Assembly (NCBI GenBank): GCA_964386185.1
Contig: CAYLRJ010000033.1
Location: 100 to 64,099, forward strand
Direction: 5' to 3'
From: an uncultured Anaerolineaceae bacterium
GTDB taxonomy: Bacteria > Chloroflexota > Anaerolineae > Anaerolineales > DRMV01
Length of the DNA: 64,000 nt
Part shown: piece by piece, positions 3,824 through 34,781 of the stretch
Position numbering within the stretch: position 1 is the first letter of the stretch
Layout: each line of letters starts with the position of its first letter
Position numbers and translations under genes: made by a program
The notes under the pieces: model-generated
The model's input: the letters and a program-made list of their open reading frames with translations, nothing else
What the model was told of the DNA's origin: nothing
Database searches by the model: none

Positions 3824-4753
3824 TCACCTCGCAAACAGAGTGTGGAGCAGGCGGCGACGCCAAGGGATGGTTTTGAGGTAATCCAGGTGGTGGGCAAAGC
3901 GTTCGGGAAGCAAGCCGAATTCGCGAGGAAGGGTATCGGTGGCTGCGATGCGGTCGGCAGCGAAGTAGTCTAACCAGAGCGAAGAGACCGGCAGGCGAGG
4001 GAAGAGGTAGCGCAACCAGACGGTTAGATGGCGCAGGTGAGCGGGTGAAAGGCCCCAAAAGCGGCGTTTGAGCCCTAAGGCCGCGGCGACGGTTTGGCTG
4101 ATTTCCTGGAGGCTGAGGTGTTCGCCGCCGCCCAAGGGGATGGTTTGGCCTTGAGGGGCGAGGGTTTCCAGGGCCAATGTGAGCGCGGCGGCCAAATCTT
4201 CCACCCAAAGCGGCTGTAAAAGGGTGCGCCCGTGGTTGGGCAAGGGGAAAAACGGCGTGGCGTGGAGTAGCAGGGCCAGGGTGTTGGTGAAGTCGTCATC
4301 GGGGCCGAAGGGGATACCAAGGCGAAAAATGGTGTAAGGCACTTGCGCCCGTTGGAAGGCGATTTCGGCCAGTCCGTGGGCTTTGAACCACGGGTAGGCG
4401 GAAGCGGGTTCGGCACCGAGGGTGCTGAGGTGTAAAATGTGCGCGATGTGGGCCTCGCGCGCGGCTTCGCTCAAAGTTTGGGCTTGACGCACCAGCGTGA
4501 GGAGGTCTTCTCCCTGGGCGGGCATGGCCGCACCATCGGCTGAGATCACGGCTTCGATGCCCACCAGCGCGGCGCGTAAGCCTTTGGGATCGTGCGGCGC
4601 GGTGAGCACGGCCTCAACAGAAACCCCTTGGGGCAGCATGGGGCTTTGTGGTCCGGGCGGAATGAGGGCGCGCACCTGATGACCGGCCTGAACCAGATGG
4701 CGCACGATGGCCCGCCCGACGAAGTTGGTGCTGCCGATGACAAGGATGCGCAT
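3824..4753 (-). CDS. NAD(P)-binding NmrA/atypical-SDR family protein
   Basis: Start chosen at MRILVIGSTNFVGRAIVRHL (GxxGxxG Rossmann motif). The ORF-track extension to 4831 has no support. Confidence 0.75.
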   Translation of the reverse strand: MRILVIGSTNFVGRAIVRHLVQAGHQVRALIPPGPQSPMLPQGVSVEAVLTAPHDPKGLRAALVGIEAVISADGAAMPAQGEDLLTLVRQAQTLSEAAREAHIAHILHLSTLGAEPASAYPWFKAHGLAEIAFQRAQVPYTIFRLGIPFGPDDDFTNTLALLLHATPFFPLPNHGRTLLQPLWVEDLAAALTLALETLAPQGQTIPLGGGEHLSLQEISQTVAAALGLKRRFWGLSPAHLRHLTVWLRYLFPRLPVSSLWLDYFAADRIAATDTLPREFGLLPERFAHHLDYLKTIPWRRRLLHTLFAR

Positions 4754-4993
4754 GGTGTCATTATATCGCACTGGGGCGCGGCCGGGCTTTGCTACCCCCA
4801 AGACGCGCTTAGCGTTGGCGAGGCGCGGCAATTGGCCTGGGGAAAAGGAGCCCTGGCTGGGTTGAGGCCTGTTCCCTGCGTGTTTTCTGCAACGAATGGT
4901 GTTCCCTTAGCCTTCAAAGGTGACTTGAAAAAGCCGTGTAAAAGGGCGTTGTTGACAGAAATTATTTATTTTCACTTTAGTTGTTGCAAAACA

Positions 4994-5002
4994 TGTTATA
5001 AT
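4994..5002 (+). promoter_or_regulatory. Extended -10 promoter TGTTATAAT
   Basis: TGn + TATAAT at 4994-5002 inside an AT-rich island. ATG at 5012 lies 9 nt downstream. Confidence 0.5.
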
Positions 5003-5011
5003 GAAATGACA

Positions 5012-6061
5012 ATGAAACCGAAATCCTGGCAATTAGGGTTCGTAGCGGGGGTAGCAATCATTTTGGTGACTTTGCTTTCCCATCCGGTGGCGTATGCCGA
5101 CGATGGGAATGGGGCGCGCTATTTCCCTGCCACTGGGCATACGGTGCAGGGGGCTTTCCTTGCCCTGTATGAAAGCATCCCCAACGCGGCGATTGTTGTT
5201 GGAGCGCCGATTTCGGAAGCCCTCACCCGTCGAAACGGCAAAATTCAATATTTTCAAAAAGCCGTCTTTGTTCAACCGTGGGGAAGTGCCCAGGCCGAGT
5301 TGCTGCCGTTAGGGCAGGAAGTTTACCGTTTGCTGGCGCAGCGCGGCGACGTCACCTGGGCGCCCGCGGCAGGCATCGGAAGCGGCACCTTGGCGTGCCA
5401 ATATTTCCCCGCGGTGCAAGGCGACACATTGCCAGTGTGTGGTAAATTCCTGCCGACCTATGAGCGCTATCGCGGCTTCCTGGGCCGTGTGGTGAGCCAA
5501 GCGCTGGACGAAGTCGTTGGCATGCAGCGAACCACGGTGCAATATTTCGAATACGGCCGTTTGGAACTCCGCTTAGGCGCGCAAAACGATTGGCAGGCGA
5601 CTTTGAGCCCCTTGGGGGAACTGTATTTCAGTTTGCAAGGCGAAGATCCTGCCCTGCTCGACCCCCGACCGCCCAGCAACAACGCGCCCGCCTTTTCTGT
5701 GACCTCGTTGCAAGTCTTGATTAGCGTTGAGCACTTGACCTTGCATCAAAACGAATCGCAGACTATTTACATCACCGTGCTGGACCAAATCGGGCAACCA
5801 GTCACCGGGGCCGCGGTGCAGGTGGACCTTTGCTGGTTGGACGATCACGCCGATGTTTCACCCGAGGCGCAAACCGTCACCACAGTCGGCGCGCTCGGAG
5901 AAAAATGTGTGCCTGTGGGGGAAGTTTGGACGGACGCCGAAGGGAGAGGCACTGTGAAGACCGTCGCGCCCGCGACCATGGGGCACATTGAAATCGAAGT
6001 GCAAGTCGAGGCCCAAGGCGTCACCGCCCACGGAAAGAGTTCCTTCCGGGTGTGGTGGTAG
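5012..6061 (+). CDS. Secreted hypothetical protein with C-terminal Ig-like (Big-type) domain
   Basis: Signal-like N-terminus MKPKSWQLGFVAGVAIILVTLLSHPVAYA. An alternative ATG at 5006 adds MT. The C-terminal 100 aa look like a beta-sandwich (TIYITVLDQIGQPVTGAAVQV...). Confidence 0.6.
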   Translation: MKPKSWQLGFVAGVAIILVTLLSHPVAYADDGNGARYFPATGHTVQGAFLALYESIPNAAIVVGAPISEALTRRNGKIQYFQKAVFVQPWGSAQAELLPLGQEVYRLLAQRGDVTWAPAAGIGSGTLACQYFPAVQGDTLPVCGKFLPTYERYRGFLGRVVSQALDEVVGMQRTTVQYFEYGRLELRLGAQNDWQATLSPLGELYFSLQGEDPALLDPRPPSNNAPAFSVTSLQVLISVEHLTLHQNESQTIYITVLDQIGQPVTGAAVQVDLCWLDDHADVSPEAQTVTTVGALGEKCVPVGEVWTDAEGRGTVKTVAPATMGHIEIEVQVEAQGVTAHGKSSFRVWW

Positions 6062-9738: not shown

Positions 9739-10114
9739 GCCGCAGGCGCGCGATGGCTCTGCCGCGATGGGCCCCGTCAATTTGCCCAGCGGGGAAACGG
9801 CCGCGGCGGGATGTGGTTTGGGTGGGGTGAGAGAAGAAGCCCGTTTTGACCTTGCTAACCTTCTTTAAAGAAATTGTGGCTGATGCGTTAATTGCCGCCT
9901 GGCTGGAAAGCGAGGCGGTTTTGTTTATGTTTGAAAATTAGGAAAAAAGTCCTATGGAAGCGGTGCAAATGCGATTTTGTTACAGTTTTAAGGGTAGTAC
10001 TTTGGTACCTATTTTGGTAATTTTAAACTTAATTTCAGGTATAATGAAAGCAATAGCCTTCGCTTTGGTTTTATGTCAAGCGAAGACACTGGGAGAGACT
10101 GGAGAGGAGTGCTC

Positions 10115-10747
10115 ATGATGTTCCGAAGAGCCCTCACGCGCCTATGGCGGAAAAAGCGTTTGCCTTTGGGGCAGAGCTTGGTCGAAGTGGCTCTGTTTTT
10201 CCCCATTTTGTTGATTGTTTTTTCCGGCCTGATTGAGATGGGGTTTTGGCTGGTGGATTACCTGGCCGTCGTGGATGCGGCGCGGAATGCGGCTCGTTTT
10301 GCCAGCGACAACTATTATTACATCCGCGATTCCAATACCGACTGCACGACCACGCACGATTTTTATCGGCAGGCGGCGTGTGATGTTTTAACCGAGTTGA
10401 AGCAAGAGCGCCCGAAAATCGTGTTGGATACGGCCAGCGACGATATTGTGGTATCGGCGGTGTCGGTTTTGCAGAATTACGGGGTTGTGGCGCGTTTTCC
10501 GCCGCCGAATGGGTGGTGGTCTTATTACGGCCATTTTGGTTCCCAGGTCAGCAATGCAGAAATCAACAGCCGTTTGGATTTGAGCGCGCCGAGCACGGGG
10601 TTGGTGGTGGTAGAGGTGTTTTATCACTACCACCAGCGGTTGAAACTGCCGTGGATTCAAGCTTTTATTCCTGACCCGATTTTGATTCATGCCGTTGCCA
10701 TTATGCCGTTAGTTTCGGCTGAGCCAACGCCTACTCCTTCTCCGTGA
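10115..10747 (+). CDS. TadE-like pseudopilin
   Basis: SD GGAGAGGAG before the ATG. N-terminus ...LPLGQSLVEVALFFPILLIVFSGLIEMG has a G/xxxxE prepilin-type motif plus a hydrophobic helix. Ends in AEPTPTPSP. Confidence 0.75.
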   Translation: MMFRRALTRLWRKKRLPLGQSLVEVALFFPILLIVFSGLIEMGFWLVDYLAVVDAARNAARFASDNYYYIRDSNTDCTTTHDFYRQAACDVLTELKQERPKIVLDTASDDIVVSAVSVLQNYGVVARFPPPNGWWSYYGHFGSQVSNAEINSRLDLSAPSTGLVVVEVFYHYHQRLKLPWIQAFIPDPILIHAVAIMPLVSAEPTPTPSP

Positions 10748-10754
10748 GGTTATC

Positions 10755-12263
10755 ATGATGGAAAGACAGCGAAACCACGGACAAATGCTCATTATATTGG
10801 CGGCGGCCTTGGTAGGGCTGTTGGCCTTTACGGGCTTGGCCGTTGATTTAGGGCGTTACTTTGTCGCCGAGGGTCGTTTGCGCCAGGCTGCTGATGCGGC
10901 GGCGCTGGCGGCTTCAGCCCAATTCCGTGAAAACCGCGACATCTCTGCCATGCGGGCTGCCGCGCGGTCCTTTATCGAGGCGAATGGCTTTACCCCCACC
11001 CTTTTGGAAGTCAACACTTGCGACACCAAGCCGGGTGACCCTTATTTGTGCGTGCCGCCTCGGCGCAAAAAGGTCGAGGTGATCGTTGAGGCTGATCTCC
11101 CTACCGCGTTTTTGCAAATTGTCGGCATTAATACCATTCATCTGAAGGCCGAGGCGGTGAGCGAGGCCGCGTCTATGGACGTGGTGTTGGTGATTGACAC
11201 GTCAGAATCCATGACCTACGACGCACCGCCCGGTGACCCCATGCGGGATCCTTCGCATTGCAACCCCCTGCACCAGTGTCACCCCTTCGAAGAGGTGCGT
11301 AGCGCGGCCTTGAACTTTGTTTCGCGCATCTTGAATTTGCCCCCCGCAAAAGAGCAAGACCGCGTGGCCATCGTGACCTTTGCAGATGGGTGGCGGCGTG
11401 GCGATACCGCCCCGCGTTTCCCGCCGGGCACGCCTTCTACAGCGCCCATTTCAATGGCGTGGACCTACGATTATGGGACGGCGGCCAATATCGTGAACAA
11501 TATGACCGTGTATGACCCGGGCTGGGAATGCCCAGAAGATTTGGCCGATTCCGATGCGCCTGGCCCTTGCCGCCGTTACGACCCCGGCAGCCATACCTAT
11601 TTGGGCTTGGATTGTCCCCTGCTGCGCAATCCTGATTATGAAGACCCCTCAACGTGCACCACAACGGCCATCGGCGGCGGCTTGTATTGGGCTGGGCAAC
11701 TGTTGAGCACCTCGGGCCGCGACGATGCGCTGTGGGTGGTCATTTTGTTGACCGATGGCGCGGCCAATTCCACCCTGCCCTCGAGCAACGACGTTCTCGA
11801 CACCCCGGCGCATATTCGGGCCTCGCTTCCGGTGGGGTATTGCCCGCCTTCGACTTTCCATTCGCCGTTTTGCCGAGATCACAACCCTGATTCGCGCCAT
11901 CCCAGCACCAGCTCATTGTATGACGCCGACGATTATGCCCGCGACATGGCCGACTATGTGGCTTGTTCGGCCACCAACCCCGCGCCGGGGTGTGCCGTGG
12001 GCGGGCAGAGCGCGGCAATTTTTGCAATCGGCTTAGGCCAGCAGGTGCTCAACACCTATGGCGCTTCCAAACCTCACGGCGGGGCATTGCTGCGTTACGT
12101 TGCTGCCGTGGGTGACGATGGTGACCCTTCGACCGACCCCTGTGATGGCATCACCGACTACACCCAATGGTGCGGCAATTACTACTTCTCGCCGACAGGG
12201 TCGGGGCTGAATACAGTTTTTGAAGATATTGCCTCTCGTCTGTTTACTCGGCTAACGCATTAG
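10755..12263 (+). CDS. TadG-like pseudopilin with von Willebrand factor A domain
   Basis: N-terminus HGQMLIILAAALVGLLAFTGLAVDLGRYF. vWA MIDAS motif VVLVIDTSESM. Starts 8 nt after the previous stop. Confidence 0.75.
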   Translation: MMERQRNHGQMLIILAAALVGLLAFTGLAVDLGRYFVAEGRLRQAADAAALAASAQFRENRDISAMRAAARSFIEANGFTPTLLEVNTCDTKPGDPYLCVPPRRKKVEVIVEADLPTAFLQIVGINTIHLKAEAVSEAASMDVVLVIDTSESMTYDAPPGDPMRDPSHCNPLHQCHPFEEVRSAALNFVSRILNLPPAKEQDRVAIVTFADGWRRGDTAPRFPPGTPSTAPISMAWTYDYGTAANIVNNMTVYDPGWECPEDLADSDAPGPCRRYDPGSHTYLGLDCPLLRNPDYEDPSTCTTTAIGGGLYWAGQLLSTSGRDDALWVVILLTDGAANSTLPSSNDVLDTPAHIRASLPVGYCPPSTFHSPFCRDHNPDSRHPSTSSLYDADDYARDMADYVACSATNPAPGCAVGGQSAAIFAIGLGQQVLNTYGASKPHGGALLRYVAAVGDDGDPSTDPCDGITDYTQWCGNYYFSPTGSGLNTVFEDIASRLFTRLTH

Positions 12264-12288
12264 CGGCTTGTGTGAGTGAGGTAGAACG

Positions 12289-14784
12289 ATGAACAGCAAA
12301 ATTTCAAGGCGGCAACATCCATGGTTCCCCAAACGCGGCCAGGGCGCAGTAGAATTCGCTTTATTGCTTCCCGTCGTATTGATGCTGATTTTTGCCATGA
12401 TTGAAACGGCCAGGCTGTTTCAGGCCTATATGGTGGTGGAAAACGCAGCCCGCTATGGCGTGCGATATGCTCAAACTGGGGAATATGACCCTTCGTATTG
12501 CATTGACCTGGACGGCGACGGCACACCCTGCGACGGCGCACACAAAATCGAAGAGGAAGACGCAGCCCGCGTTGCCAGCATCAAAGCCGTGGTGCGGGGC
12601 GTTGCCGTGGGGATTATGCGCGATGATACCGCCGCACCCAACCAACCGGGATATTTCCACGTCACCGTGTGCAGCAGCAGCCCGGGTTTTGTGTATGACC
12701 CCGTGTCGGATACGTGCTCGCCCCACGACGATGCAGGCGACCCCACGTTAGGCCCTACCCGGGTGCTGGTGAGCGTGACCTTCTACCACCCGATGATTTT
12801 GCCCTTCATCTCTTCGATTACCCCTGCGGTGAAGCTCCATGCAGAGCGTACAGGGATTTTGGAACGCTTCCGCGTCTCCAAGGTCATTGGCTTGCCGCCT
12901 GATATTCGGCTGCCAACGCCAACGCCGGTGCCCACCAATACCCAGCCGCCGACGGCTACCGCAACCGAAACCCCGCTCCCGACCGATACCCCCACGCCCA
13001 CAATGACCCCTACCCCCAGCTGTGACAACGTCGACGTGGGTAATTTGCGGGTGCGGAAAGACGACTTAAAGATTCAAGTGATCAATTACAATGCCGATAA
13101 GATTTATTTCACCGGCGCTATCATTGACTGGACCAACGTGGCAGAAGGTGAATATCTGAACTATGCCAAGGCAAGGTGGCATAAATACTACCGAGGTGAC
13201 GCATACAGCGGCCCGGCCTTTACCCAGGCAACTCCGCCCGTGGCGTGGGGCGCAGGGGTCCAAGGCACGTGGATGGCTGACTTCAACAAAGTAAGTTACA
13301 ACGACTTCGCCTTGGGGAGCTATAGCGTCACCTTGAACTTCACCCTCTCGGATGGCACCACGTGTAGCTATACCCGCGATTACCACTATGTGCCCATCCA
13401 CGTTGAAATTGTCTGGCCGCCCGAGGGCTTTGTGGTGGATTCGGATGACGATCGCGCACAAACGCCCTTTGAGGCCGTGGCGTGGGATCCGTTGGTCGGC
13501 CAGAGCAACGGCGATGGCATCCAAAAAGTCCAATTCCGATTGGTTTTCCCCACGGGAGAATCGAAGACCCATACGGAATGGCACGCCCGCTACTGCACTT
13601 TTGGTGGTGATGCTTCCTGCCATGTGATGTGGCGCTCGTGGTGGAACATGCTGAAAGAGCAAAATGGTGTGGCCGTGTTGCAGGCGCGTGCCTACTCGCG
13701 GGAACGGGGCATTTGGTCGCCGTGGGTCGAGCGCACTTTCCTGGTCAACTTCCCGACCCCGACGCCTACCCTGACGCCCACCATCACCCCCACACCAACC
13801 ATCACTCCGACGCCGACCATCACCCCCACGCCGACCATCACCCCCACCCCCAGCAACACACCGACCCCGACCCTCTCGCCGACCCCCACCCCCACGCCAG
13901 ATTGTACGGACATCAGCATCACGTCCATGTATGTCTCGGGGCACAACGTGGTCGCGGTGGTGCGTAACAACAACCCGCAACCCATTGCCCTGACGTTCAC
14001 CAACTTCTCGTGGTCCCTGTTGGACGCTTCCAACAGCGCAGTTTACGTGGATTGGATGGACTTCAACGGTGATCGCATCACCAGCAGCGACGACTACAGC
14101 TCACCGAGCACGGCCAGCAGCCATATTTGGATGGGAAGCAGCGGCGCCACGGCGCAGTGGAAGGCGAATTTCGATGGCGTCTCATCGCCTTATGGCCCGC
14201 TGTCGGTCACGTTGACCTTTGATGGGCGTTGTACTGTGAGCCGCACCATTGACGTCCCAACGCCTACCCCCACCAATACCCCCACTCCCACCGAGACGCC
14301 CACGCCTACGCCCACGCCCGATTGTTCCCTCATCACCATTACCAACTACTACACCGCGGGCCGCGACCTGGACGTCCAGGTCAGGAACGACAACCCCATG
14401 GATATGCCGCTTACCAGCGCAACGCTCTCCTGGCCGAAAAATTACACCAGCCAATACGTGGATTCCTTCCTGTGGAATTGGAGCACATACTACGGCGGCA
14501 ACGACTATAGCTCGCCTACAACGGTGGGCTCGTCGCTGAGTTTCCCCGGTGGCACTACGCGCACTTGGACGGCTCGCTTTGGCTTGAGCCCGCTCTTCGG
14601 CACCTACACCGTGCAACTCACCTTTGGCGGCATCTGTGTGGTCTCGCGAAACATGATCTTTGCTTCGCCGACGCCATCGCCTTATCCTACAAATACCCCA
14701 ACACCGGTACCTACGACGCCTACACCGACGGTGGAACCGACCGAATCACCGACGCCTGTTCCGACCGTGTGTTTGGACTGTTGA
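12289..14784 (+). CDS. TadE-like pseudopilin fused to a large modular extracellular region (three Cys-bracketed ~110-aa modules, one Ig-like module, Pro/Thr linkers)
   Basis: N-terminus [29 protein letters not shown]. Modules begin at C245, C539 and C679 and are separated by (TP)n linkers. Ends in ...PTVCLDC. Confidence 0.75.
13774..13845 (+). repeat. In-frame 18-bp tandem repeat x4 encoding (TPTITP)4; the last two units are identical
   Basis: acgcccaccatcaccccc / acaccaaccatcactccg / acgccgaccatcaccccc x2, read directly and codon-aligned to the 12289 frame. Confidence 0.9.
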
Positions 14785-14800: not shown

Positions 14801-14850
14801 CCAACGGCCCCGCCAATACTGACGGGGCCGTTGGCGTTTTCCTGTTTTCT
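14801..14850 (+). terminator. Rho-independent terminator of the pseudopilin operon
   Basis: 12-bp stem ccaacggccccg / cggggccgttgg followed by cgttttcctgttttc. Confidence 0.7.
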
Positions 14851-14899
14851 TGCTACAATGGCAGTGGGTAACCGTTTCGTGCGCGAGAGGAGGCGTGGG

Positions 14900-15376
14900 A
14901 TGGAACAGAAAACGAACTCGCAAGACCGGTTTTTTTGGGGAATGTTGTTGGGCTTGGTGCTGTTGGCCCTCCTGGCCGTCGTGATCGCGTGGGCTCGTCG
15001 CAAAGATACCGCGTATCGGACCGACAATTCTCCTTCAGCTACGGTTTACAACTACATCCTGGCTTTGCAACGGAATGATTGGGAGCGGGCCTACCAACTG
15101 CTGAGCGACGAGATGCCATGCAAGCCGTCGCTGATGGATTTCGGCACTGAAATGCAAGACTTTCAACTCTTCTCGACCGTTGACATCGTGGGAGAAACTT
15201 TTGTGGATGACAACCACGCTTGGGTGACCATCTTTTTCCGGCAAGAGGAGGCCCCCTTTAGATTTTCGATGATGGAATATCCCGCGCGGGTGACCCTGGT
15301 GCGGGAGAACGGCCAATGGAAAATCCTTGAGCTACCATCCGAATTAGAGGGCTCGTGGTACTGGCGATGCGACTAA
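14900..15376 (+). CDS. Single-pass membrane protein, hypothetical
   Basis: SD GAGGAGG before the ATG at 14900. One TM (FFWGMLLGLVLLALLAVVIAWA), then a ~120-aa soluble domain. The ORF-track start at 14831 lies inside the terminator. Confidence 0.5.
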   Translation: MEQKTNSQDRFFWGMLLGLVLLALLAVVIAWARRKDTAYRTDNSPSATVYNYILALQRNDWERAYQLLSDEMPCKPSLMDFGTEMQDFQLFSTVDIVGETFVDDNHAWVTIFFRQEEAPFRFSMMEYPARVTLVRENGQWKILELPSELEGSWYWRCD

Positions 15377-15449: not shown

Positions 15450-17318
15450 ATGGCCACTTTGCGGCGGATTTATGTGTATCTGGTGGTGATTGTCACGCTG
15501 GAGATTTGGGTTTGGGATTTGGTAGGGCTGCTCTATCGCGCCCTGCAAAATCGCTTGTGGCGTTCGCCAGAGCAGTTGGCGTTGCCGTTGGCGGGTTTCC
15601 TGATTGCGTTGCCGGTTTTTGTTCTGCACTGGCACTGGGCACAGCGTGATGCAGCAGCCGACCCCGAAGAGCGCGCCTCGGGCGTGCGGGCTGTGGCGCT
15701 GTATGTGCTTTTGGCCCTGACCTGGGGCGTTGTTTTTCATGCGGTGATGGTTTTAGTAGCCCGGGGGTTAGAGGCTGTTTTTGCCATCGAGGCCAATACC
15801 CTTTTCCCCCGGCTGACGTGGGAGCGAGGGCTGGCGCTTTTGCTGCCGCACGGCGTGCTCGGGTGGTATTTCCTGACCATTGTGCGGCGAGATGAACAGC
15901 CCCTCTGCCCGCAAGCGCACTGCCTCGCGCGGCGATGGTATCGGTGGTTGTGGCTTTCGTATAGCCTCGTGTGGGTGTTGCTGGGGGCGCAAAAATTACT
16001 GGAAGTGATTTTCCCGCCAGAGCGTAGCGTGACCTTGGTGGTCACCCCCTTGTTGGTGGAAGCCTTGCAGGGTAGTGTGTTGGTCTTGGGCGGGTTGATT
16101 ATCTGGGGATACTGGGGGCGGCGCTGGTGGCACGAAACGCTACACGACCCGCAAGAGCGTGGGGCGGGGCTTGTGGCGGCGTTCCTGATTGTGTGGGCCT
16201 TGAGCGGGTTGAGTGTGAGTTTGGCCGTGGCGGGGATGGCCCTGAATGGCGTGTTGTTGCACCTCTTGGGCGAAAATGAGCCGTTATATCGGCTCGTGCG
16301 CTTGCTTATAACCGTGGGCTTGCCGTGGATGACGGTTTGGATCGCCGCGCAAAAGGGCTTGGCGCAGTTGATTGCCGCTTGGGATGAGGCGCGACAAGCC
16401 AAAATTCACCGTTTGGTGTTGAGCATTTTGGCGGCGGCAGGGCTGCTTTTGTTGAGCAGCGGCGTGGGCGCGTTGGTGCATTTCGTCTTGACCGTTTTGT
16501 GGGGCGACGTGGTGGTCTCCTATCGGCCGCTGGCCTCTGGGATAACCCTGTTTGTGTTGGGGGGGATGCTGTGGCCGATGCCTTGGCGCGCCTTGCAGCG
16601 AGAGGCGATGGCCGACACAGCAGCGCGCGCGAGCCTGATTCGGCGGGGATATTTGTATGTGATACTCTTTTTTGCCATCCTGGCCGTGATTGGCTTTGCC
16701 ACGATGAGCGCTTACCAGGTTTTGGTCGCCTTTTTGGGCGGCGTCCCCGACGGGCAGCGCTTCCGGTTTGCCTTGGTGATGACCTTGTGGAGCGGAAGCG
16801 TTTTGGCCTATCACGCCCGATGGCTGCGGCTGGACTGGGCGGCGGTCCGCTCGCAATCTCAGCAGCAGACAGCCGATTTTCGGGTGTTGGCTTTGGGGCA
16901 GGAAAGCGCGGCCTGGTTGGCCGACTTAGAGGACCGCATGGCTTTGCCGGTCACCGTGCTTGCGCCCGCGGAAGCGACACCGCCCGAAGCGCGCTTCGAG
17001 GCTGTGGTCTGTTCAGAGACCACGTTGTTGACCCTTCCGCCGGCCTGGCAAGCGTGGCTGGCGGCCTTCGAAGGCGCGCGCTTGATTGTCTTTGGTCATA
17101 CGCCAGGCCATTGGTTCTGGCTTGATGGGCGGCAAACCAAGCCTACCCACCTGCGCGAGGCGCTCGAGGCCCTTTCCCAAGGCAGGCAGCCTCGCTCGGC
17201 CGGCGCACCTGGCCCCCTGTGGACAGCGTTGGCCTATTTGGGCATTTTCAGCCTGATTTCATGGCTTTTTGGGCTCTTGGTCCCGCTCTTGATGGGGCTG
17301 GCTTCCTTTTTCCAGTAG
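15450..17318 (+). CDS. Polytopic membrane protein, hypothetical (repeated Arg-led TM hairpins)
   Basis: 622 aa, SD GGAGGT. At least 12 hydrophobic segments, many introduced by R..Y/W motifs. C-terminal ~130-aa soluble region plus a final TM. Confidence 0.6.
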   Translation: MATLRRIYVYLVVIVTLEIWVWDLVGLLYRALQNRLWRSPEQLALPLAGFLIALPVFVLHWHWAQRDAAADPEERASGVRAVALYVLLALTWGVVFHAVMVLVARGLEAVFAIEANTLFPRLTWERGLALLLPHGVLGWYFLTIVRRDEQPLCPQAHCLARRWYRWLWLSYSLVWVLLGAQKLLEVIFPPERSVTLVVTPLLVEALQGSVLVLGGLIIWGYWGRRWWHETLHDPQERGAGLVAAFLIVWALSGLSVSLAVAGMALNGVLLHLLGENEPLYRLVRLLITVGLPWMTVWIAAQKGLAQLIAAWDEARQAKIHRLVLSILAAAGLLLLSSGVGALVHFVLTVLWGDVVVSYRPLASGITLFVLGGMLWPMPWRALQREAMADTAARASLIRRGYLYVILFFAILAVIGFATMSAYQVLVAFLGGVPDGQRFRFALVMTLWSGSVLAYHARWLRLDWAAVRSQSQQQTADFRVLALGQESAAWLADLEDRMALPVTVLAPAEATPPEARFEAVVCSETTLLTLPPAWQAWLAAFEGARLIVFGHTPGHWFWLDGRQTKPTHLREALEALSQGRQPRSAGAPGPLWTALAYLGIFSLISWLFGLLVPLLMGLASFFQ

Positions 17319-29733: not shown

Positions 29734-31065
29734 TTATGGCTTTTCGATTTCGCCGGTTTCGAGGCGATAGTTGTAGATGTCCTGCATGCGGTAGAGGTCC
29801 TGTTGCAGGATGAAGAAGCCATGCCAGTGTGCCCAGTCGGGGGCGCCCATGAGGGCACCTTGGCGGGCCCGACGGCCTTCGTGGTGCCAGAGGTGGTAGT
29901 AGAGGATTTGGAATTCGTCTGCCCAGGGGTTGTCTTTCAGCAGGCCTTTGTCGCTGAGGGTGTCCAGCATTTCTTTGGCGGGGGTGTAGTAGGCTTCGTT
30001 GTAGAGCCGGACGGCGTTGTCGGCGCTGGTGAAGTAGTCGTCCACCATTTGCGAGGAATGGCAGTTGAGGCAGACTTGTTTCATTTCAGCCCGCCCTTCT
30101 TCCGCGTGGCCTGTCAGGCTCGACATGGGGTCGTCTGAGTTGCGCGGTTTCGAGAGTTTGGCCCATGCGTTCCAGTAGAGGCGTTGGGAGATGTTGTGGG
30201 TGGGTTCCAGGTCGCCAATGCCGCTCATGTGGCAGGTGGCGCAGGTGGGGGCTCGGTAGTCGCCGGGTTCCCATTCGCCAGGCGGGCTGTCCCACTTCCA
30301 GGTTTCGCCTTCTGTTGCGTAGATTTGCCCGTGTTTGGTGTCTTCGTAGATTTCGATGTCGGGGTGGTCGGGCCCCAGGTGGCAGGATGCGCAGGCTTCG
30401 GGTTTGCGGGCTTCTTCGATGCTGAATTTGTGGCGGGTGTGGCAGACGGTGCAGTTGCCCACTTCGCCGTTGGGGTAGATGTTGCCGATGCCCGAGGCCG
30501 GATAGGTGGCCGCGGTCGGGTGCCCGGTTTCGTCCACTTCGATGCGTTTGCCGTGGCATTGTGCACAGCCGGTTTCTTCGGTGACGCCGTCAATGTCGTC
30601 GTAGTCACGGCCTTCGTGGTGGTGGATGAGGGTTTGCATGGAGTCTTTGTCTTCCACCTGGAGGGCTGCCCGGTAGTGGCCACTGGCTTGGAATTCAGCC
30701 ACTTCTTGTTCGTGGCATTTGCCGCAGGTCGAAGGCGGCACCAGCATGGAGACGGCCACGTCGAGGTCTTCATGCCCTTTGACGTCTTTGAGGGCCATGG
30801 GAGAGTTGGGGTCGGTTTCGTGGCAGTCCAGGCAGGTGACGCCGTTTTGGGCGTGGGCGCTGCTGTCCCACTCGTGGACGATGCCCGGGGTTTCGGTGGC
30901 ATGGCATTCGATGCACGCGCGCGCCTCGTCGGTCACCCCTTGGGCGTGAGGCGCAACGCTCAGGGTGGGCGGCGGGTTGCTGGCGCTGCTGCCGCCGCAC
31001 GCGGCCAGGAAGATGGCCGCCAGGACGACGATGAAGAGAATCGAGTATCGGTATTTGCTGCTCAT
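29734..31065 (-). CDS. Octahaem c-type cytochrome lipoprotein, hydroxylamine-oxidoreductase (HAO/epsilon-Hao)-like
   Basis: Eight CxxCH motifs: CIECH, CLDCH, CGKCH, CAQCH, CTVCH, CASCH, CATCH, CLNCH. Lipobox LAAC and SD GAGGAG. C-terminal LWHHEGRRARQGALMGAPDWAHWHG resembles the HAO family (from memory). Confidence 0.75.
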   Translation of the reverse strand: MSSKYRYSILFIVVLAAIFLAACGGSSASNPPPTLSVAPHAQGVTDEARACIECHATETPGIVHEWDSSAHAQNGVTCLDCHETDPNSPMALKDVKGHEDLDVAVSMLVPPSTCGKCHEQEVAEFQASGHYRAALQVEDKDSMQTLIHHHEGRDYDDIDGVTEETGCAQCHGKRIEVDETGHPTAATYPASGIGNIYPNGEVGNCTVCHTRHKFSIEEARKPEACASCHLGPDHPDIEIYEDTKHGQIYATEGETWKWDSPPGEWEPGDYRAPTCATCHMSGIGDLEPTHNISQRLYWNAWAKLSKPRNSDDPMSSLTGHAEEGRAEMKQVCLNCHSSQMVDDYFTSADNAVRLYNEAYYTPAKEMLDTLSDKGLLKDNPWADEFQILYYHLWHHEGRRARQGALMGAPDWAHWHGFFILQQDLYRMQDIYNYRLETGEIEKP

Positions 31066-31109
31066 ACACACTCCTCTGTTTGGAAGGTTACGACGGATAG
31101 GTCTGCGCC

Positions 31110-31655
31110 CTATGGGGCATATTTGTGTTGCACTTCCATGAGCAGGAGATGTTCGTTGAGGTTGGCGTGCCCCACACTCTCGTGGCAATCAACACACTGG
31201 GCGTCAATCAGCCCTGCAAAGTATTTCGCATGGGCGTCTTTCCCCGCTGAGACGTCGGCCAGGTTGCTGTGGCATTGGAGACATCCTGAGTCGTACACGA
31301 ACCGCTTTCGCTCTTCGCGTCGGGCTTGCCAGTCGATGGCAAATTCGTTGCTCGTGAGGGCAACCCAGGTATCAATGGTGCCAGAGCGGGCTTTGGAGTA
31401 GTAATAGGCGACAGGATTGCTGTGGTCAATGTGGCAGTCGCTGCATGAGGCTGCCACACCAGCGGGATTGTTCCCGCCGTGGACGGAGTCGTGATACGCG
31501 GCGACCATGGGTTGCATGACATGACACACACCGCAAAATTCTGCGTTCGATGTGGCTTCGAAGCCGGCTTCGGTCACCATCCAACCCACGGTCAGCACCA
31601 GGAAGAGGAGGGCAAGGCCGCCCAGGACATAGAGAATTTGCTTGCGTCTTTTCAT
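31110..31655 (-). CDS. NapC/NirT/NrfH-family tetrahaem cytochrome c (membrane quinol dehydrogenase)
   Basis: N-terminal TM plus four CxxCH motifs (CGVCH, CSDCH, CLQCH, CVDCH). 181 aa. SD GGAGGTG. Confidence 0.85.
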   Translation of the reverse strand: MKRRKQILYVLGGLALLFLVLTVGWMVTEAGFEATSNAEFCGVCHVMQPMVAAYHDSVHGGNNPAGVAASCSDCHIDHSNPVAYYYSKARSGTIDTWVALTSNEFAIDWQARREERKRFVYDSGCLQCHSNLADVSAGKDAHAKYFAGLIDAQCVDCHESVGHANLNEHLLLMEVQHKYAP

Positions 31656-31792: not shown

Positions 31793-32018
31793 AACGTGCT
31801 GTGGAAAAGGATGGGTTTGTCTTGGGAAAAAGATGCGTTTTCTTAAAAAACTAAGTTATCAGTTATCAAGTGTCAGACCACTGAAAAGGGAGACGAGATG
31901 GGGCGGAGAGGCGGCAGAGCCAGGGGCGTTTCCCCGCGCTGCGGCTTTTGGCGTCAGGTGGGTGCAGCGTGGGGATTAAAGGAAGGTGATAATTTGGAAG
32001 AGGGCTACCGTGCTGTGC

Positions 32019-32047
32019 TTGACGCGGGCGGTCAAGCGGGTTATGAT
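32019..32047 (+). promoter_or_regulatory. Sigma70-type promoter of TPR gene 1
   Basis: TTGACG - 17 nt - TATGAT. The ATG at 32055 is 7 nt after the -10 box. Confidence 0.6.
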
Positions 32048-32054
32048 GGAGCGC

Positions 32055-33293
32055 ATGGAACTCAGAGGAAGCAAATGGAGTATGCGGCGGCGACGCCGGC
32101 GAAGCAACCCCTGGCGCATCGTCGTTTTGGCCTTGTTGATTGGCGCTATGATTTACGTCAATCAGGTGATTGTGCCTGAGGTGCCCAAGCCTTTTGTGCC
32201 CACGCCGACGCCCACCACCAACCCAGAGGCCTATCTCACCAAGGCCGAAGAGGCGTTCAAAGCCGGGCAGTTGACAGAGGCCATTCAGGCTTATCAACAG
32301 GCGATTTTGCACGACCCCGACAACCCTTCGTTGCACGTCGCCTTGGCGCGAGTGCAGTTGTTGGCCGGCCAGTATGAAGCCGCCCTCACCAGCGCCGAAA
32401 ACGCACTGTTGCTCAACCCCGATTACGCGATGGCCCACGCCTTGCGGGGCTATGCCCTTTACAAGTTGGGTGATACGGTACAAGCCCAAACAGCCTTGCA
32501 GCGCGCGTTGGAGTTGGACCCCAACAACGCGTTGGCTCACGCTTTCTTGGCCGAAATTTACGCGGACCAGCAACTTTACCCCAAAGCCGATGAGGAAATT
32601 CGCAAGGCGCTGAATCTGGCCCCGCGCGATTTGGAAGTCAGGCAGATTTACGGCTACATTTTGTTTGCCGAAAGTTACTACGACCGCGCCATCAAAGAAT
32701 ACAAAGCCGCGTTGGCCATCAACCCTAACATCCCGAGCCTGCATATCACGCTGGGGCTTCTCTATCGGGCGCAGGGCAAATATGGCGAAGCCATTGACGA
32801 ATTCCTCAAAGCCAACGCCCTCAACCCCACCGACCCCATGCCCGATGCTTACATCGCGACCACCTATGCCACCCAAGGTGAATATGGCCGCGCTTTGCAA
32901 TACGCGGCCAAAGCAGCCGAAGAAGCCCCGGGCGACCCATACATGCACGGCAATTATGGCCTCATGCTTTATAAAAACGGCAAATATGCGGAAGCCGTCA
33001 AGGAATTAGGCCTGGCCGTGCACGGCGGTGAAACCGACGATGGGGTGTTGGTCAAGGGGTTGCCGTTGGATTATGGCCGAGTGGCCGATTATTACAGCGT
33101 TTATGGTTTGGCTTTGGTGAAAATCGGTCGGTGTGACGAGGCAATCCCAGTGTTTCAGGCGATTTTGGCCGGCGTTCCCACCGATGAAGTGGCGGTGTAT
33201 AACGCCAATCAGGGTTTGAGCATGTGCGCTGCCCAAACCGAGGCCACACCCACGCCGGCCGAGGGCACGCCAGAGGCCACGCCCACGCCATAG
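32055..33293 (+). CDS. Membrane-anchored TPR-repeat protein (paralogue 1)
   Basis: Start set at MELRG by analogy with the paralogue. One TM, a PTPTPT linker, about 10 TPR units (AL..A+.L+P+...A), and the C-terminal tail ...EATPTP. Confidence 0.7.
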   Translation: MELRGSKWSMRRRRRRSNPWRIVVLALLIGAMIYVNQVIVPEVPKPFVPTPTPTTNPEAYLTKAEEAFKAGQLTEAIQAYQQAILHDPDNPSLHVALARVQLLAGQYEAALTSAENALLLNPDYAMAHALRGYALYKLGDTVQAQTALQRALELDPNNALAHAFLAEIYADQQLYPKADEEIRKALNLAPRDLEVRQIYGYILFAESYYDRAIKEYKAALAINPNIPSLHITLGLLYRAQGKYGEAIDEFLKANALNPTDPMPDAYIATTYATQGEYGRALQYAAKAAEEAPGDPYMHGNYGLMLYKNGKYAEAVKELGLAVHGGETDDGVLVKGLPLDYGRVADYYSVYGLALVKIGRCDEAIPVFQAILAGVPTDEVAVYNANQGLSMCAAQTEATPTPAEGTPEATPTP

Positions 33294-33353
33294 GGGGAAC
33301 GCCGCGGCCGTAAAGGCGTTTTCCTTTGCTTTGAGCATGCCGCAAATCTAACG

Positions 33354-34781
33354 ATGGAACTCCGTGGTGATGACCTTCACTTTGACGAACGCAAAGCGCG
33401 CTCCCGTCCGGGACGGGTGGCGCTGTATTTGGCGTTGATTTTGTTGGGCCTGGCGCTGGATTGGGCTTTGATGGTGGGCAAAATTCAACCGCCCGACTTG
33501 TTTGCCCCTACGCCTACGCCCACGCGTAGCGCGACCTCGTGGGCGGAAGAGGGGCAGGCGCAGTTCGTGGCCGGCAACTTGGAGGCGGCCATCGAGGCGT
33601 ATCAAATGGCCACCCGTTTGGACCCGCGCAATGGGAAACTCTGGGCGGAGCTGGCGCGCATTCAGGTGTATTCTTCGGCTTTGCTCCCCACCGATGCCCA
33701 GAAATTCGTGCGCCGTCAGGACGCCCTGAAGTCGGCCGACCGCGCGGTCGAAGCTGCCCCCAACGAAGCTTTGACTCACGCTGTGCGCGCCTTTGCCTTG
33801 GATTGGTTGGCGACATCGAATTTGGCTACGGCCGAGGAATCGGACCGTTGGCTCACCGAAGCCGAAGGAGAGGCTTCGCGGGCGTTGGTGATGTCGAAAA
33901 ACGACCCCCTGGCCCTGGCCTATTACGCGGAGGTGCTCCTCGATCAGCAAAAATGGCTCCAAGCCAACCGCTTTGCAGAGCTGGCCGTGCAATATGGCCC
34001 CGACTTGCTGGATACCCACCGCGTCTATGCCGCAGTGTTGGAGACTTTGGGGCAATATAACAACGCCATCAAAGAATACAAAGAGGCCATTCGCTTGGCG
34101 CCTAACCTGACGTTCTTGTATCTTCGCGCCGGGCTGATTTACCGCCATCTGGCCGGCTCCGCTCAGGCCAGCCCTGAGTTTCGGAAGGCGCTCTATCAGA
34201 AGGCCCTCGATTATTTCGCCCAAGCCGCGAAAATCAACCAACGGTTAGGCATTCAAGACCCCACACCTTATATTGCCATCGCGAAGACCTATTCCCAAAT
34301 GGGCGAGTTTTTCATCGCAGCCCGCAACGCGGAACGGGCATTGCTGATGGACCCGACCAACCCCAACACATATGCCGAACTCGGCATCATTTACATCAAA
34401 GCCCGCAATTATGAGGGTTCGGTGCCGGTGCTCAAGTGCGCGGTCGAAGGCTGCTCGCCTGAAGAGAGCCAGAAGATCATTGACGACATTCGCAAGCGTT
34501 TCACCGGTTTCGATGATTTGAAAGGGGTGCCGGTGCAGGCGCTCCCCCTGACGGATCGCACCGTGGGCTTTTATTATGTGAGTTACGGCTCGGTTTTGGC
34601 TGCGTTAGACCGCTGCCAGGAAGCCCTGCCGATTTTGGACAAGGTCGAGCGAGTGTTCCCTAACGACCCGGTGTTGGGCGGCATCATCCGAGAAAACCGC
34701 GCCATTTGCCGCACCTTGCAGGCCGAAAAGACCCCGCAGCCCACGGCCACACCCCTCTTGACGCCCACGCCCACCCCTTGA
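33354..34781 (+). CDS. Membrane-anchored TPR-repeat protein (paralogue 2)
   Basis: N-terminus MELRGDD..., a TM, a PTPTPT linker, TPR units, and the C-terminal tail ...LLTPTPTP. Confidence 0.75.
   Translation: MELRGDDLHFDERKARSRPGRVALYLALILLGLALDWALMVGKIQPPDLFAPTPTPTRSATSWAEEGQAQFVAGNLEAAIEAYQMATRLDPRNGKLWAELARIQVYSSALLPTDAQKFVRRQDALKSADRAVEAAPNEALTHAVRAFALDWLATSNLATAEESDRWLTEAEGEASRALVMSKNDPLALAYYAEVLLDQQKWLQANRFAELAVQYGPDLLDTHRVYAAVLETLGQYNNAIKEYKEAIRLAPNLTFLYLRAGLIYRHLAGSAQASPEFRKALYQKALDYFAQAAKINQRLGIQDPTPYIAIAKTYSQMGEFFIAARNAERALLMDPTNPNTYAELGIIYIKARNYEGSVPVLKCAVEGCSPEESQKIIDDIRKRFTGFDDLKGVPVQALPLTDRTVGFYYVSYGSVLAALDRCQEALPILDKVERVFPNDPVLGGIIRENRAICRTLQAEKTPQPTATPLLTPTPTP

Follow-up and report, generated by a model that had tools for sequence, protein, structure and literature searches.

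Three consecutive plus-strand open reading frames, g1 (10115(10073)-10747), g2 (10755-12263) and g3 (12289-14784), raise the question of which surface structure their products serve. They are located within a window of 64 kb, i.e., the whole stretch of DNA that was analysed. In a previous sequence-only reading they were described as an orphan Tad pseudopilin operon encoding a detachable tip complex or adhesin cassette for a pilus encoded elsewhere. The answer suggested here is that the operon probably encodes the minor-pilin complex, i.e., the initiation or tip complex, of an Anaerolineae Tad (type IVc, Flp) pilus, with the motor, the platform, the major pilin and the prepilin peptidase being encoded elsewhere. 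The gaps of 7 nt between g1 and g2 and of 25 nt between g2 and g3 agree with those read before. The features of the locus are compiled in Table 1.

Table 1. Features of the g1-g2-g3 operon and its flanks (positions in the window)
Feature	Position	Strand	Evidence or remark
AT-rich upstream region	9850..10110	+	GC 0.31-0.41; TATAAT; ribosome-binding site
g1, TadE-type minor pilin, 210 aa	10115..10747	+	Pfam TadE 2.5e-10
g2 pilin module, aa 1-140	10755..11174	+	Pfam Tad PF13400 6.8e-10; AF2
g2 vWA module, aa 141-502	11175..12263	+	partial Pfam VWA; MIDAS; Foldseek
g3 pilin domain, aa 1-205	12289..12903	+	Pfam TadE 3.6e-14; AF2
g3 Pro/Thr-rich linker 1, aa 206-243	12904..13017	+	predicted disordered, pLDDT <50
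g3 module M1, aa 244-368, A-type beta-sandwich	13018..13392	+	bounded by conserved Cys245 and Cys359
g3 module M2, aa 369-488, B-type beta-sandwich	13393..13752	+	
g3 Pro/Thr linker 2, aa 489-537	13753..13899	+	18/36-nt tandem repeat, TPTITP units
g3 module M3, aa 538-655, A-type beta-sandwich	13900..14253	+	lower model confidence
g3 Pro/Thr linker 3, aa 656-676	14254..14316	+	
g3 module M4, aa 677-792, A-type beta-sandwich	14317..14664	+	
g3 C-terminal Pro/Thr-rich tail and stop codon	14665..14784	+	last residues VCLDC
Intrinsic terminator	14801..14852	+	stem-loop 14801-14834, then T-rich tract

Family membership is documented by Pfam, as g1 and g3 match TadE (PF07811) with 40.8 and 53.0 bits (gathering score 22.9) and g2 matches both Tad (PF13400; 39.5 bits, gathering score 22.3) and VWA (28.8 bits, gathering score 23.8), the latter match being partial due to an insertion in the domain. 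All of these matches exceed the gathering scores, which bears out the assignment as Tad-type minor pilins. Next to this, g1 matches NCBIfam TadE_Rv3655c weakly, and Pfam and NCBIfam together assign the three N-termini to the TadE and Tad types only, besides a sub-threshold match of g3 to Class_IIIsignal (14.9 vs 23.7). A motif scan identified the class III signal peptide of g1 as MMFRRALTRLWRKKRLPLG/QSLVEV, with Glu at +5 and a cleavage site predicted from the sequence after Gly19 (codon 10169-10171), and that of g3 as a 17-residue leader that ends in Gly and is followed by QGAVEF (G/QGAVEF), likewise with Glu at +5; in the whole window, only these two were found. A G/xxxxE segment had been claimed for each of the three genes, which holds for g1 and g3 but not for g2, where the short leader MMERQRNHG/Q is followed by the hydrophobic residues MLII and Glu at +5 is absent. 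Within the g2 family (n=53), G9 is kept in 49 and Q10 in 52 sequences, while position +5 is occupied by Leu or Ile in 51, by Val in one and by a gap in one, and by Glu in none. Within the g3 family (n=121), Q+1 is found in 114 members and both E+5 and F+6 in 119, with Gly, Ala or Ser preceding the putative cleavage site; about 40% of the homologues possess Ala or Ser here, and their processing may be reduced or altered. Orthologues of g1 are located upstream of g2 in related loci and mostly carry [GA]Q..(V/I/L)E.

These N-termini bear on an alternative explanation, according to which the three products are stand-alone membrane-anchored surface proteins whose TadE/TadG helix is a signal anchor only and which assemble no pilus, whereby the Pro/Thr linkers would let the vWA and Ig-like modules reach across the thick envelope of Chloroflexota. 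The lack of Glu5 in g2 would suit such an anchor, but the near-invariant Q+1/E+5/F+6 of g3 and G/Q...E of g1 are hard to square with it.

Structural modelling of g2 and g3 revealed pilin folds. The AF2 model of the TadG-like g2 (502 aa; pLDDT 92.7, pTM 0.87) shows a pilin module in which alpha-1, a long and hydrophobic helix, spans aa 2-58 and is accompanied by a small beta-sheet. It is followed by a vWA module in which about 11 cysteines are invariant and the Thr motif is set apart from the first strands by a large insertion. The MIDAS is complete (D148-x-S150-x-S152, nt 11196-11210, together with T304 and D334), and of its residues D148, S152, T304 and D334 are invariant across the 53 homologues, S150 being present in at least 90%. 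Foldseek identified PilB from S. sanguinis (7b7p, E 3e-8, 460 columns) as the top PDB match of the g2 model, which spans both the pilin and the vWA part at a sequence identity of about 12%; Mfa5, RrgA and GBS104, which are pilus tip adhesins, came next. The model hence supports the earlier view of g2 as a tip-adhesin-like protein with a vWA domain and a MIDAS, and the fact that its closest structural match is a true pilus subunit argues against the stand-alone anchors. PilB (vWA) and PilC (lectin) are modular type IV pilins in which a small pilin module is joined to a functional module (PMC8179133); unlike g2 and g3, which are of the Tad type (PF13400, PF07811), PilB is part of a type IVa pilus and carries the N-methylation motif IPR012902. 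The absence of Glu5 in g2 is what one would expect from a subunit that caps the tip, since in type 4 filaments the tip complex is, as a general rule, capped by a subunit without Glu5 (PMC10191384). Capping minor pilins of the GspK/PilK type share with g2 the missing Glu5 and the possession of an extra domain, and they cap the initiation complex (PMC10191384); they are, however, not related to g2 in sequence, and the extra alpha-domain of GspK is inserted in the pilin sheet, whereas the vWA domain of g2 is C-terminal.

For g3 (831 aa), the AF2 model shows, within the TadE domain, two helices, the first being alpha-1 (aa 16-63), and a sheet of four strands (aa 123-191), with a pLDDT >90 over aa 21-190 and with conserved Cys71/81/128/143. 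The TadE domain is followed by about 626 further residues comprising four modules, in agreement with the roughly 600 extra residues in PT-linked modules noted before. These modules are Ig-like beta-sandwiches which yield generic Ig/FN3-like matches only, without a Pfam signature and without a recognisable ligand-binding site, and the label adhesin given to g3 previously is hence unproven. M3 and M4 are 38% identical, while M2, of the B type, shows no relation to the A type and is also present in many extracellular proteins other than pilins, among them Ser/Thr kinases. The latter finding would be in line with the stand-alone anchors, as would the long Pro/Thr linkers with tandem Ig-like modules, which are usual in wall-spanning surface proteins. 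A comparison of module number among relatives had been proposed and revealed the number of A-type modules to vary from 0 to 5, at homologue sizes between 393 and 1333 aa. Compared with L009, a syntenic relative, g3 is 55% identical as opposed to 72-77% for g1, g2, DUF711 and LplA; judged by these identities, the divergence of g3 is much larger than that of its neighbours. The claim that g3 represents a new type of modular pseudopilin adhesin went too far, as hundreds of database entries belong to the family, some of them named TadE/TadG family pilus assembly protein, and as multi-module pilins were described in the survey of Raynaud et al. 2021 (PMC8179133). Both g2 (vWA) and g3 (four beta-sandwiches) combine a pilin with non-pilin modules in this sense.

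The search for pilus machinery covered 73 kb of the 117.6-kb metagenome contig. Among about 50 large ORFs across the 64-kb window, Pfam identified no T2SSE/CpaF, T2SSF/TadBC, Peptidase_A24, RcpC or Flp, and phmmer with A24 and CpaB seeds gave no match to any window ORF of >=60 aa, as had been stated for the 64 kb before. A further 9.4 kb of the contig past the window end likewise contained no Tad machinery gene, and over this whole range no tad locus (flp, tadV, tadZABC) surrounds the triad. A ComEA homologue was identified at 38401-38979. The partner machinery would have to be encoded elsewhere in the genome, outside the region examined, as the sequence-only reading had likewise assumed.

The lack of machinery genes within these 73 kb would be in line with stand-alone anchors; the related loci speak against them. 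Across species-representative genomes, 338 matches were confirmed, of which the best 80, all from Chloroflexota and mostly from Anaerolineales, were inspected. The g1-g2-g3 order is complete in 67 of these 80 loci, and such a fixed three-gene stoichiometry and order is known from minor-pilin sets. A Peptidase_A24 (prepilin peptidase) gene immediately precedes the triad, in the same orientation, in a quarter of the relatives (16/63 loci), and CpaB/RcpC is found upstream in two (L006 and L043). The triad is thus not in general isolated from pilus genes, and the anchor explanation is considered unlikely. A CpaF-type Walker A ATPase or a Flp-like ORF was not found within 10 kb of the triad in 86 related loci. 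Being conserved in Anaerolineae and normally apart from the pilus motor, the triad is hence a real but fairly ordinary feature, and terming it orphan or a detachable cassette overstated its separateness.

A further explanation, in line with the detachable cassette of the earlier reading, assumes an exchangeable accessory tip cassette, which would be one of several alternative tips of a Tad pilus whose core minor pilins are encoded elsewhere; the Myxococcus Kil system (PMC12075869) is a precedent. In some relatives, a second, smaller TadE-TadE-TadG set is located nearby (L003/L004, adjoining an ECF sigma factor, L016 and L085) or the long TadE genes are duplicated (L005, L026, L059, L068, L079), which together with the fast divergence of g3 would fit such a cassette. 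Against this, the complete triads occur mostly once per locus among the best 80, g2 is highly conserved among relatives (45-76% identity), and the 64-kb window holds no second TadE/TadG set. Moreover, a conserved and transcribed flp-cpaB-cpaE-cpaF-tadB-tadC cluster was reported for Anaerolineales in which tadE/G are not listed (PMC4877987; also PMC9942424), and in Chloroflexales rcpC-tadZABC, tadEEG and flp form separate groups (PMC7332563). As tadE/G are missing from the published Anaerolineales cluster, the triad looks like the regular minor-pilin set of the lineage rather than an accessory, and the cassette is considered quite improbable. That the triad serves another type 4 filament (a competence pseudopilus, another type IV pilus or a secretion pseudopilus) is very improbable, for although A24 peptidases act for type 4 filaments of every kind and a ComEA homologue is present, PF07811 and PF13400 are Tad-specific families and the triad adjoins the Tad-specific CpaB/RcpC in two relatives.

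The operon is thus a lineage-typical Tad minor-pilin set in which the modular TadE protein represents a modest new variant. As in TadE/TadF/TadG of known Tad pili (Aggregatibacter, Pseudomonas, Caulobacter CpaJ/K/L), one three-gene operon encodes PF07811 proteins (g1, g3) and a PF13400 protein (g2), both TadE-type proteins carry the class III signal peptide G/xxxxE, and the large TadG-type protein has a C-terminal module. Differences are the location apart from flp-tadV-rcp-tadZABC rather than at the tad locus end, the gene order E-G-E, the 831 aa of g3 with four extra beta-sandwich modules vs about 150-200 aa of classical TadE/F, and the Chloroflexota host, a lineage increasingly viewed as monoderm (10.1101/2025.08.19.671072). 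Both underlying concepts have been published, i.e., separately encoded Tad tip triads (PMC12075869) and modular pilins (PMC8179133). In Myxococcus, TadE/F/G-like triads located away from the machinery form pilus tips, for which genetic support was provided (PMC12075869). The M. xanthus KilL/KilM/KilN tip complexes, with three of four Kil sets apart from the machinery, are predicted to form a heterotrimer via their alpha-1 helices (PMC12075869), resembling the complex proposed here, and the triad likewise consists of three adjacent TadE/F/G-like genes able to lie outside machinery clusters. The Kil tips are restricted to Myxococcota according to the authors (PMC12075869). In contrast to the Kil system, where the TadG-like KilN carries the variable distal domain, it is the TadE-type g3 that carries it here while the vWA domain of g2 is conserved; furthermore, one triad is found in the window vs four in Myxococcus, and a link to predation or a T3SS is lacking.

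For the minor-pilin complex, the following mechanism is suggested. Initially, g1, g2 and g3 would insert into the membrane via their N-terminal hydrophobic helices, and an A24 prepilin peptidase would cut after the conserved Gly (or, in homologues of g3, after Gly, Ala or Ser). Next, the three alpha-1 helices would bundle, yielding a heterotrimer which primes Flp polymerisation and is hence proposed to reside at the distal tip. Since it possesses no Glu5, g2 is proposed to cap the filament, displaying its metal-dependent (MIDAS) vWA adhesion module, with g1 and g3, both having Glu5, placed below. The arm of g3, a flexible string of four Ig-like modules on Pro/Thr linkers, may serve as spacer or avidity arm, whereby the quick change of module number and sequence between species would tune the reach or binding of the tip. 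A possible target would be cell-cell aggregation in flocs and mats.

The flanks of the operon agree with the AT-rich island and the strong terminator described before. Upstream of g1, the GC content drops to 0.31 at 9925-10074 vs about 0.60 elsewhere, a perfect TATAAT is located at 10040-10045 and a ribosome-binding site, GGAGAGGAG, at 10101-10109. The AT-rich region is likely the operon promoter and 5' UTR; a sigma-70 consensus scan called no promoter in it, and a 54-aa ORF at 9954-10118, called in a Logan assembly, lacks conservation among relatives. Downstream of g3, the terminator stem consists of 12 GC-rich bp and folds with -32 kcal/mol (z = -5.6), a stability reached by none of 200 shuffled sequences.

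The three genes g1 (TadE-type minor pilin), g2 (TadG-like with a vWA domain) and g3 (TadE with additional modules), hereafter the triad, are closely packed on the plus strand with intergenic gaps of 7 and 25 nt, as had been claimed by the preceding sequence-only reading. Pfam assigns TadE (PF07811; cut-off 22.9 bits) to g1 (40.8 bits) and g3 (53.0 bits) and both Tad/TadG-like (PF13400; 39.5 bits, cut-off 22.3) and VWA (28.8 bits, cut-off 23.8) to g2; the TadE-type NCBIfam matches of the triad proteins are all sub-threshold. The AT-rich island described upstream of g1 was likewise found (GC 0.31, the window mean being approximately 0.60) and includes a perfect TATAAT, at which a simple sigma-70 scan called no promoter. 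Because a ribosome-binding site precedes the assigned g1 start, the alternative upstream ATG is less likely to be used. Downstream of g3, the proposed strong terminator was recovered as a 12-bp GC-rich hairpin followed by a T-rich tail (-32 kcal/mol, z = -5.6), with none of 200 shuffled sequences being as stable. A G/xxxxE motif had been attributed to each of the three genes, which holds true for g1 (RLPLG/QSLVEV) and g3 (PKRG/QGAVEF) but not for g2 (HG/QMLIIL), where Glu is missing from position +5 relative to the predicted cleavage site; class III signal peptide motif scans of the window identified g1 and g3 only. A 54-aa ORF overlapping the g1 start, called as gene in two Logan assemblies, was considered as Flp pilin candidate and rejected: it is AT-rich, is devoid of the class III motif and shows no conservation (tblastn recovered nothing in relatives; a 45-aa ORF at the same position of the related locus L003 is unrelated). 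It is therefore most likely a false gene call within the leader of the operon.

Coordinates of the triad, its signals and further features in the window and in related loci
Feature	Position	Strand	Remark
g1	10115-10747	+	ORF, 210 aa
g2	10755-12263	+	ORF, 502 aa
g3	12289-14784	+	ORF, 831 aa
AT-rich island	9925-10074		
TATAAT	10040-10045		
Alternative g1 start (candidate)	10073	+	ATG
Ribosome-binding site ahead of g1	10101-10109	+	GGAGAGGAG
54-aa ORF	9954-10118		
Module M2 of g3	13393-13752		B-type
18/36-nt tandem repeat	13756-13898		g3 linker 2
Terminator hairpin	14801-14834		
DUF4878-like membrane protein	14900-15376		158 aa, weak match
DUF5671 membrane protein	15450-17318		622 aa, polytopic
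Cytochrome pair	29734-31655	-	181 aa and 484 aa
Two large TPR proteins	31986-34781	opposite to cytochromes	
G5/DUF348 protein	36265-37536	+	
ComEA-like DNA receptor	38401-38979	-	SLBB + HHH_3
ORF without Pfam match	4592-6061	+	489 aa
ORF without Pfam match	55610-56830	-	406 aa
ORF without Pfam match	61382-63361	-	659 aa
Second minor-pilin set	L003:13977-18165, L004:7293-11481, L016:457-3542, L085:6269-9199		
TadE/Tad/VWA protein	L005:3466-5928		820 aa
CarboxypepD_reg-like protein	L006:12052-12939, L012, L013, L019, L020, L022, L025, L029, L043, L052, L053		~300 aa

The approximately 50 ORFs filling the window were translated and scanned against Pfam, whereby no CpaF/T2SSE ATPase, TadB/C, Peptidase_A24, RcpC/CpaB or Flp was identified. 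phmmer searches of all window ORFs of at least 60 aa with A24 and CpaB seeds from relatives gave no match, and Flp-like small ORFs sought in the window and in all related loci were out-of-frame or SecF-type noise only. The window is part of a 117,624-bp metagenome contig (ENA ERZ27262694 k141_172132), in which tad genes are also absent from the 9.4 kb past the window end and from approximately 0.4 kb before its start. Considering these scans, the earlier statement that no machinery is encoded within the 64 kb stands. The ORFs assigned by Pfam are housekeeping genes (FtsK, DUF711, DUF5671, LplA/B, YchF, M3 peptidase, ABC sugar transporter, NapC/NirT and multihaem cytochrome, TPR proteins, Pth, G5 protein, KsgA, ComEA, CMAS, DegV, GroEL, RecG, CoaD, RibA/D, GT4, sulfatase, RNase J and lipid enzymes).

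The distribution of the triad was addressed with the g2 alignment, which was scanned against a single genome for each of 185,579 species, that of the window not being among them, and yielded 338 confirmed matches with 74% identity for the best. The best 80 of these, all Chloroflexota and mostly labelled Anaerolineales or Anaerolineae, were annotated with HMMs built from alignments made here, and 67 of the 80 possess the complete g1-g2-g3 order, the remainder being interrupted at contig ends. Database searches identified at least 910 homologues of g2 (full-length identity 45-76%), many named 'Flp pilus assembly protein TadG' or 'VWA domain-containing protein', and at least 379 of g3 (470-1264 aa), mostly from Anaerolineales/Chloroflexota MAGs, nearly all of those listed carrying an N-terminal PF07811 and some already being named 'TadE/TadG family type IV pilus assembly protein'. 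The protein collection searched does not contain g3 in its exact sequence, and the g2 cluster there is without a name. Within 10 kb, none of the related loci encodes a CpaF-type Walker A protein or a Flp-like small ORF, the Walker A matches near the triad in 86 related loci being FtsY and ABC ATPases only. Of the 63 loci with sufficient upstream sequence, 16 have a Peptidase_A24 gene immediately ahead of the triad in the same orientation; counting any position within the locus, the gene is present in 22 of 80 (with Pfam confirmation for L020). CpaB/RcpC is encoded upstream of the triad in L006 and L043. The closest syntenic relative, L009, shares the order DUF711-triad-small protein-DUF5671-LplA.

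Some relatives deviate from this layout. A protein with a CarboxypepD_reg-like beta-sandwich domain, which may be a fourth operon member, follows the triad directly in 12 of the 49 relatives whose downstream sequence is long enough, and is absent from this window. Some relatives (L003/L004, L016 and L085) possess a second, smaller minor-pilin set near the main triad, consisting of two TadE-type proteins and a 420-480-aa Tad/PF13400 protein; as this set is preceded by an ECF sigma factor and a DUF5667 protein in L003 and L004, sigma-factor-controlled alternative minor pilins are suggested there. In L005, TadE, Tad and VWA Pfam matches occur together in one protein, which resembles a fusion between g1-like and g2-like portions; its gene adjoins an A24 peptidase, and a second full triad is found downstream.

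The AF2 model of g2 (pLDDT 92.7, pTM 0.87) revealed an alpha-1 helix (aa 2-58), a small pilin sheet (aa 83-138) and a vWA alpha/beta domain reaching to the C-terminus. Searching the PDB by sequence with g2 and g3 was uninformative, and matches were obtained by structure comparison alone: the best for g2 is the bimodular vWA minor pilin PilB from Streptococcus sanguinis (7b7p; E 3e-8, 460 columns), and next in rank are vWA domains from pilus tip adhesins (Mfa5, RrgA and GBS104). Among 53 homologues the residues D148, S152, T304 and D334 of the metal site (MIDAS) are invariant and S150 is present in at least 90%; approximately 11 further invariant positions are cysteines, consistent with an extracytoplasmic protein. 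G9 (49/53) and Q10 (52/53) are conserved as well, and position +5 is occupied by L or I in 51 homologues, one V and one gap accounting for the others, and never by Glu. As the initiation complex of type 4 filaments is topped by a subunit without Glu5 (PMC10191384), we infer that g2 would serve as cap subunit.

In the g3 family (n = 121), Q+1, E+5 and F+6 are nearly invariant, as are the cysteines 71, 81, 128 and 143 of the pilin domain and Cys245 and Cys359 flanking the first module; position -1 is G in 64, A in 41 and S in 9 sequences. The AF2 model (mean pLDDT 80) comprises a pilin domain of high confidence (helices aa 16-63 and 86-108, sheet aa 123-191), disordered Pro/Thr linkers and the well-modelled beta-sandwich modules M1 (aa 244-368), M2 (aa 369-488) and M4 (aa 677-792), with the fourth, M3 (aa 538-655), being modelled at lower confidence. 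M1, M3 and M4 (A-type) are mutually related (M3/M4 38% identity; M1/M4 27.5%, E 7e-12) and M2 is of a different type (B-type). Homologues possess zero to five A-type modules, the closest (P0001, 68% identity) having the architecture N-A-B-A and P0002 N-A-B-A-A-A. Since complete orthologues span 393-1333 aa (median 610), the 831-aa g3 is large but not exceptional. It is the fast-evolving member of the triad, with 55% identity to its L009 counterpart as compared to 72-77% for g1, g2 and the flanking housekeeping genes. Linker 2 (TPTITP) is encoded by a tandem repeat (approximately 3-8 copies, 67-80% matches), a possible site of length variation by slippage. The Foldseek matches of the whole model are confined to generic arrays of tandem Ig/FN3-like domains (alpha-2-macroglobulin MG domains, RTX-adhesin extender repeats, RbmA, transglutaminase barrels). 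Searched exhaustively with M1+M2 (aa 244-488), 1.84 billion representatives yielded 239 proteins. As 101 of the 142 listed representatives new to this search lack a TadE domain, among them the Ser/Thr kinase P0295 and P0247, a multi-Ig protein of 2244 aa, the modules are general-purpose extracellular domains without a recognisable binding site. M2, for which there is no Pfam model, recurs in many non-pilin proteins, among them P0247 and the C-terminal part of P0295, and with its conserved core (approximately F.A.AWDP.VG..NGDGI…YC.FGG…C) seems to represent a family of extracellular domains not yet described.

In wastewater sludge and anaerobic digesters, Anaerolineae form core filamentous populations, and their Tad pili are thought to drive aggregation. 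Tad functions are encoded in most wastewater Chloroflexota MAGs (PMC10746286) and Chloroflexales genomes hold 'rcpC-tadZABC, tadEEG, and flp' (PMC7332563); the published Anaerolineales tad cluster lists no minor pilins (no tadE/G; PMC4877987). As the operon is conserved in the lineage and the published work fits, the triad is best understood as the standard minor-pilin set of these bacteria, one that they habitually encode apart from the motor genes, and, being conserved across hundreds of species, it most likely supplies the missing Anaerolineae minor pilins. For Myxococcus, TadE/F/G-like triads apart from the machinery were reported to form interchangeable pilus tips with exposed variable domains, an idea extended to other bacteria by structure prediction (PMC12075869), and modular pilins are likewise published, among them PilB with its vWA domain and examples with several domains (PMC8179133). 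Specific to the present triad are the gene order E-G-E, the combination of a conserved vWA cap with a variable part located on a TadE-type rather than a TadG-type subunit, the tandem Ig-like modules on Pro/Thr linkers that make up this part and the wide distribution in Anaerolineae; no paper describing this family was found in the literature.

Starting from family membership, folds, MIDAS integrity, operon conservation and the linkage to A24 and CpaB, a five-step model is best supported and considered probable as a whole, with cleavage, complex formation, tip location and ligands being inferred. Initially, g1, g2 and g3 would be inserted into the membrane as prepilins, all three of which would be cleaved by an A24 peptidase encoded elsewhere. 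Next, their alpha-1 helices are proposed to bundle into a complex priming Flp polymerisation on the CpaF/TadBC machine and for this reason to end up at the pilus tip. There, g2 would cap the filament and present a metal-dependent vWA adhesion site towards a putative ligand, while g3 would add a flexible, variable Ig-like chain as spacer or avidity arm. The main rival, that g1-g3 are merely anchored surface proteins, is unlikely, as it is hard to square with the near-invariant Glu5/Phe6 and with the A24 linkage. Slightly less probable still is an exchangeable cassette (in the sequence-only reading, a detachable one), with which the smaller TadE-TadE-TadG sets (L003/L004, L016, L085) and the long TadE genes duplicated in other relatives agree, but which fits poorly with the conservation of the triad across genomes and the lack of tadE/G in the published core cluster.

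The operon provides the MIDAS vWA protein and the variable multi-Ig TadE as adhesive-tip candidates and extends the published ideas of modular pilins and of a separately encoded Tad tip to a Chloroflexota lineage regarded as monoderm. It can thus help to annotate the Tad pili of Anaerolineae and to select candidate adhesins for work on sludge flocs. It overturns nothing, would not surprise a pilus specialist and brings no new principle unless the modular TadE works in an unexpected way. Quite speculatively, the Anaerolineae Tad tip might be a distinct design, in which the conserved vWA cap is combined with the long, flexible and fast-evolving g3 chain on its Pro/Thr linkers, the number of modules (0-5) determining how far it reaches or which partner it recognises when filaments aggregate with one another in sludge flocs and mats; if true, g3 would represent a 'tethered-arm' minor pilin of a kind undescribed in any Tad system. 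Equally speculatively, g3 might instead be built into the pilus along its shaft, as a decoration.

Several other window genes deserve mention. The terminator is followed by the DUF4878-like membrane protein and by the membrane protein with three DUF5671 repeats, the latter being syntenic with the triad in L009 and L011. The three ORFs without Pfam match are coding-like in composition. A ComEA-like receptor and a G5/DUF348 protein are encoded; ComG competence pseudopilus genes are absent from the window. Finally, a NapC/NirT-type tetrahaem cytochrome lies beside a larger multihaem cytochrome (Multi-haem_cyto and MtrC-like matches), and together with the nearby TPR proteins they may constitute an extracellular or nitrite-type electron-transfer module.
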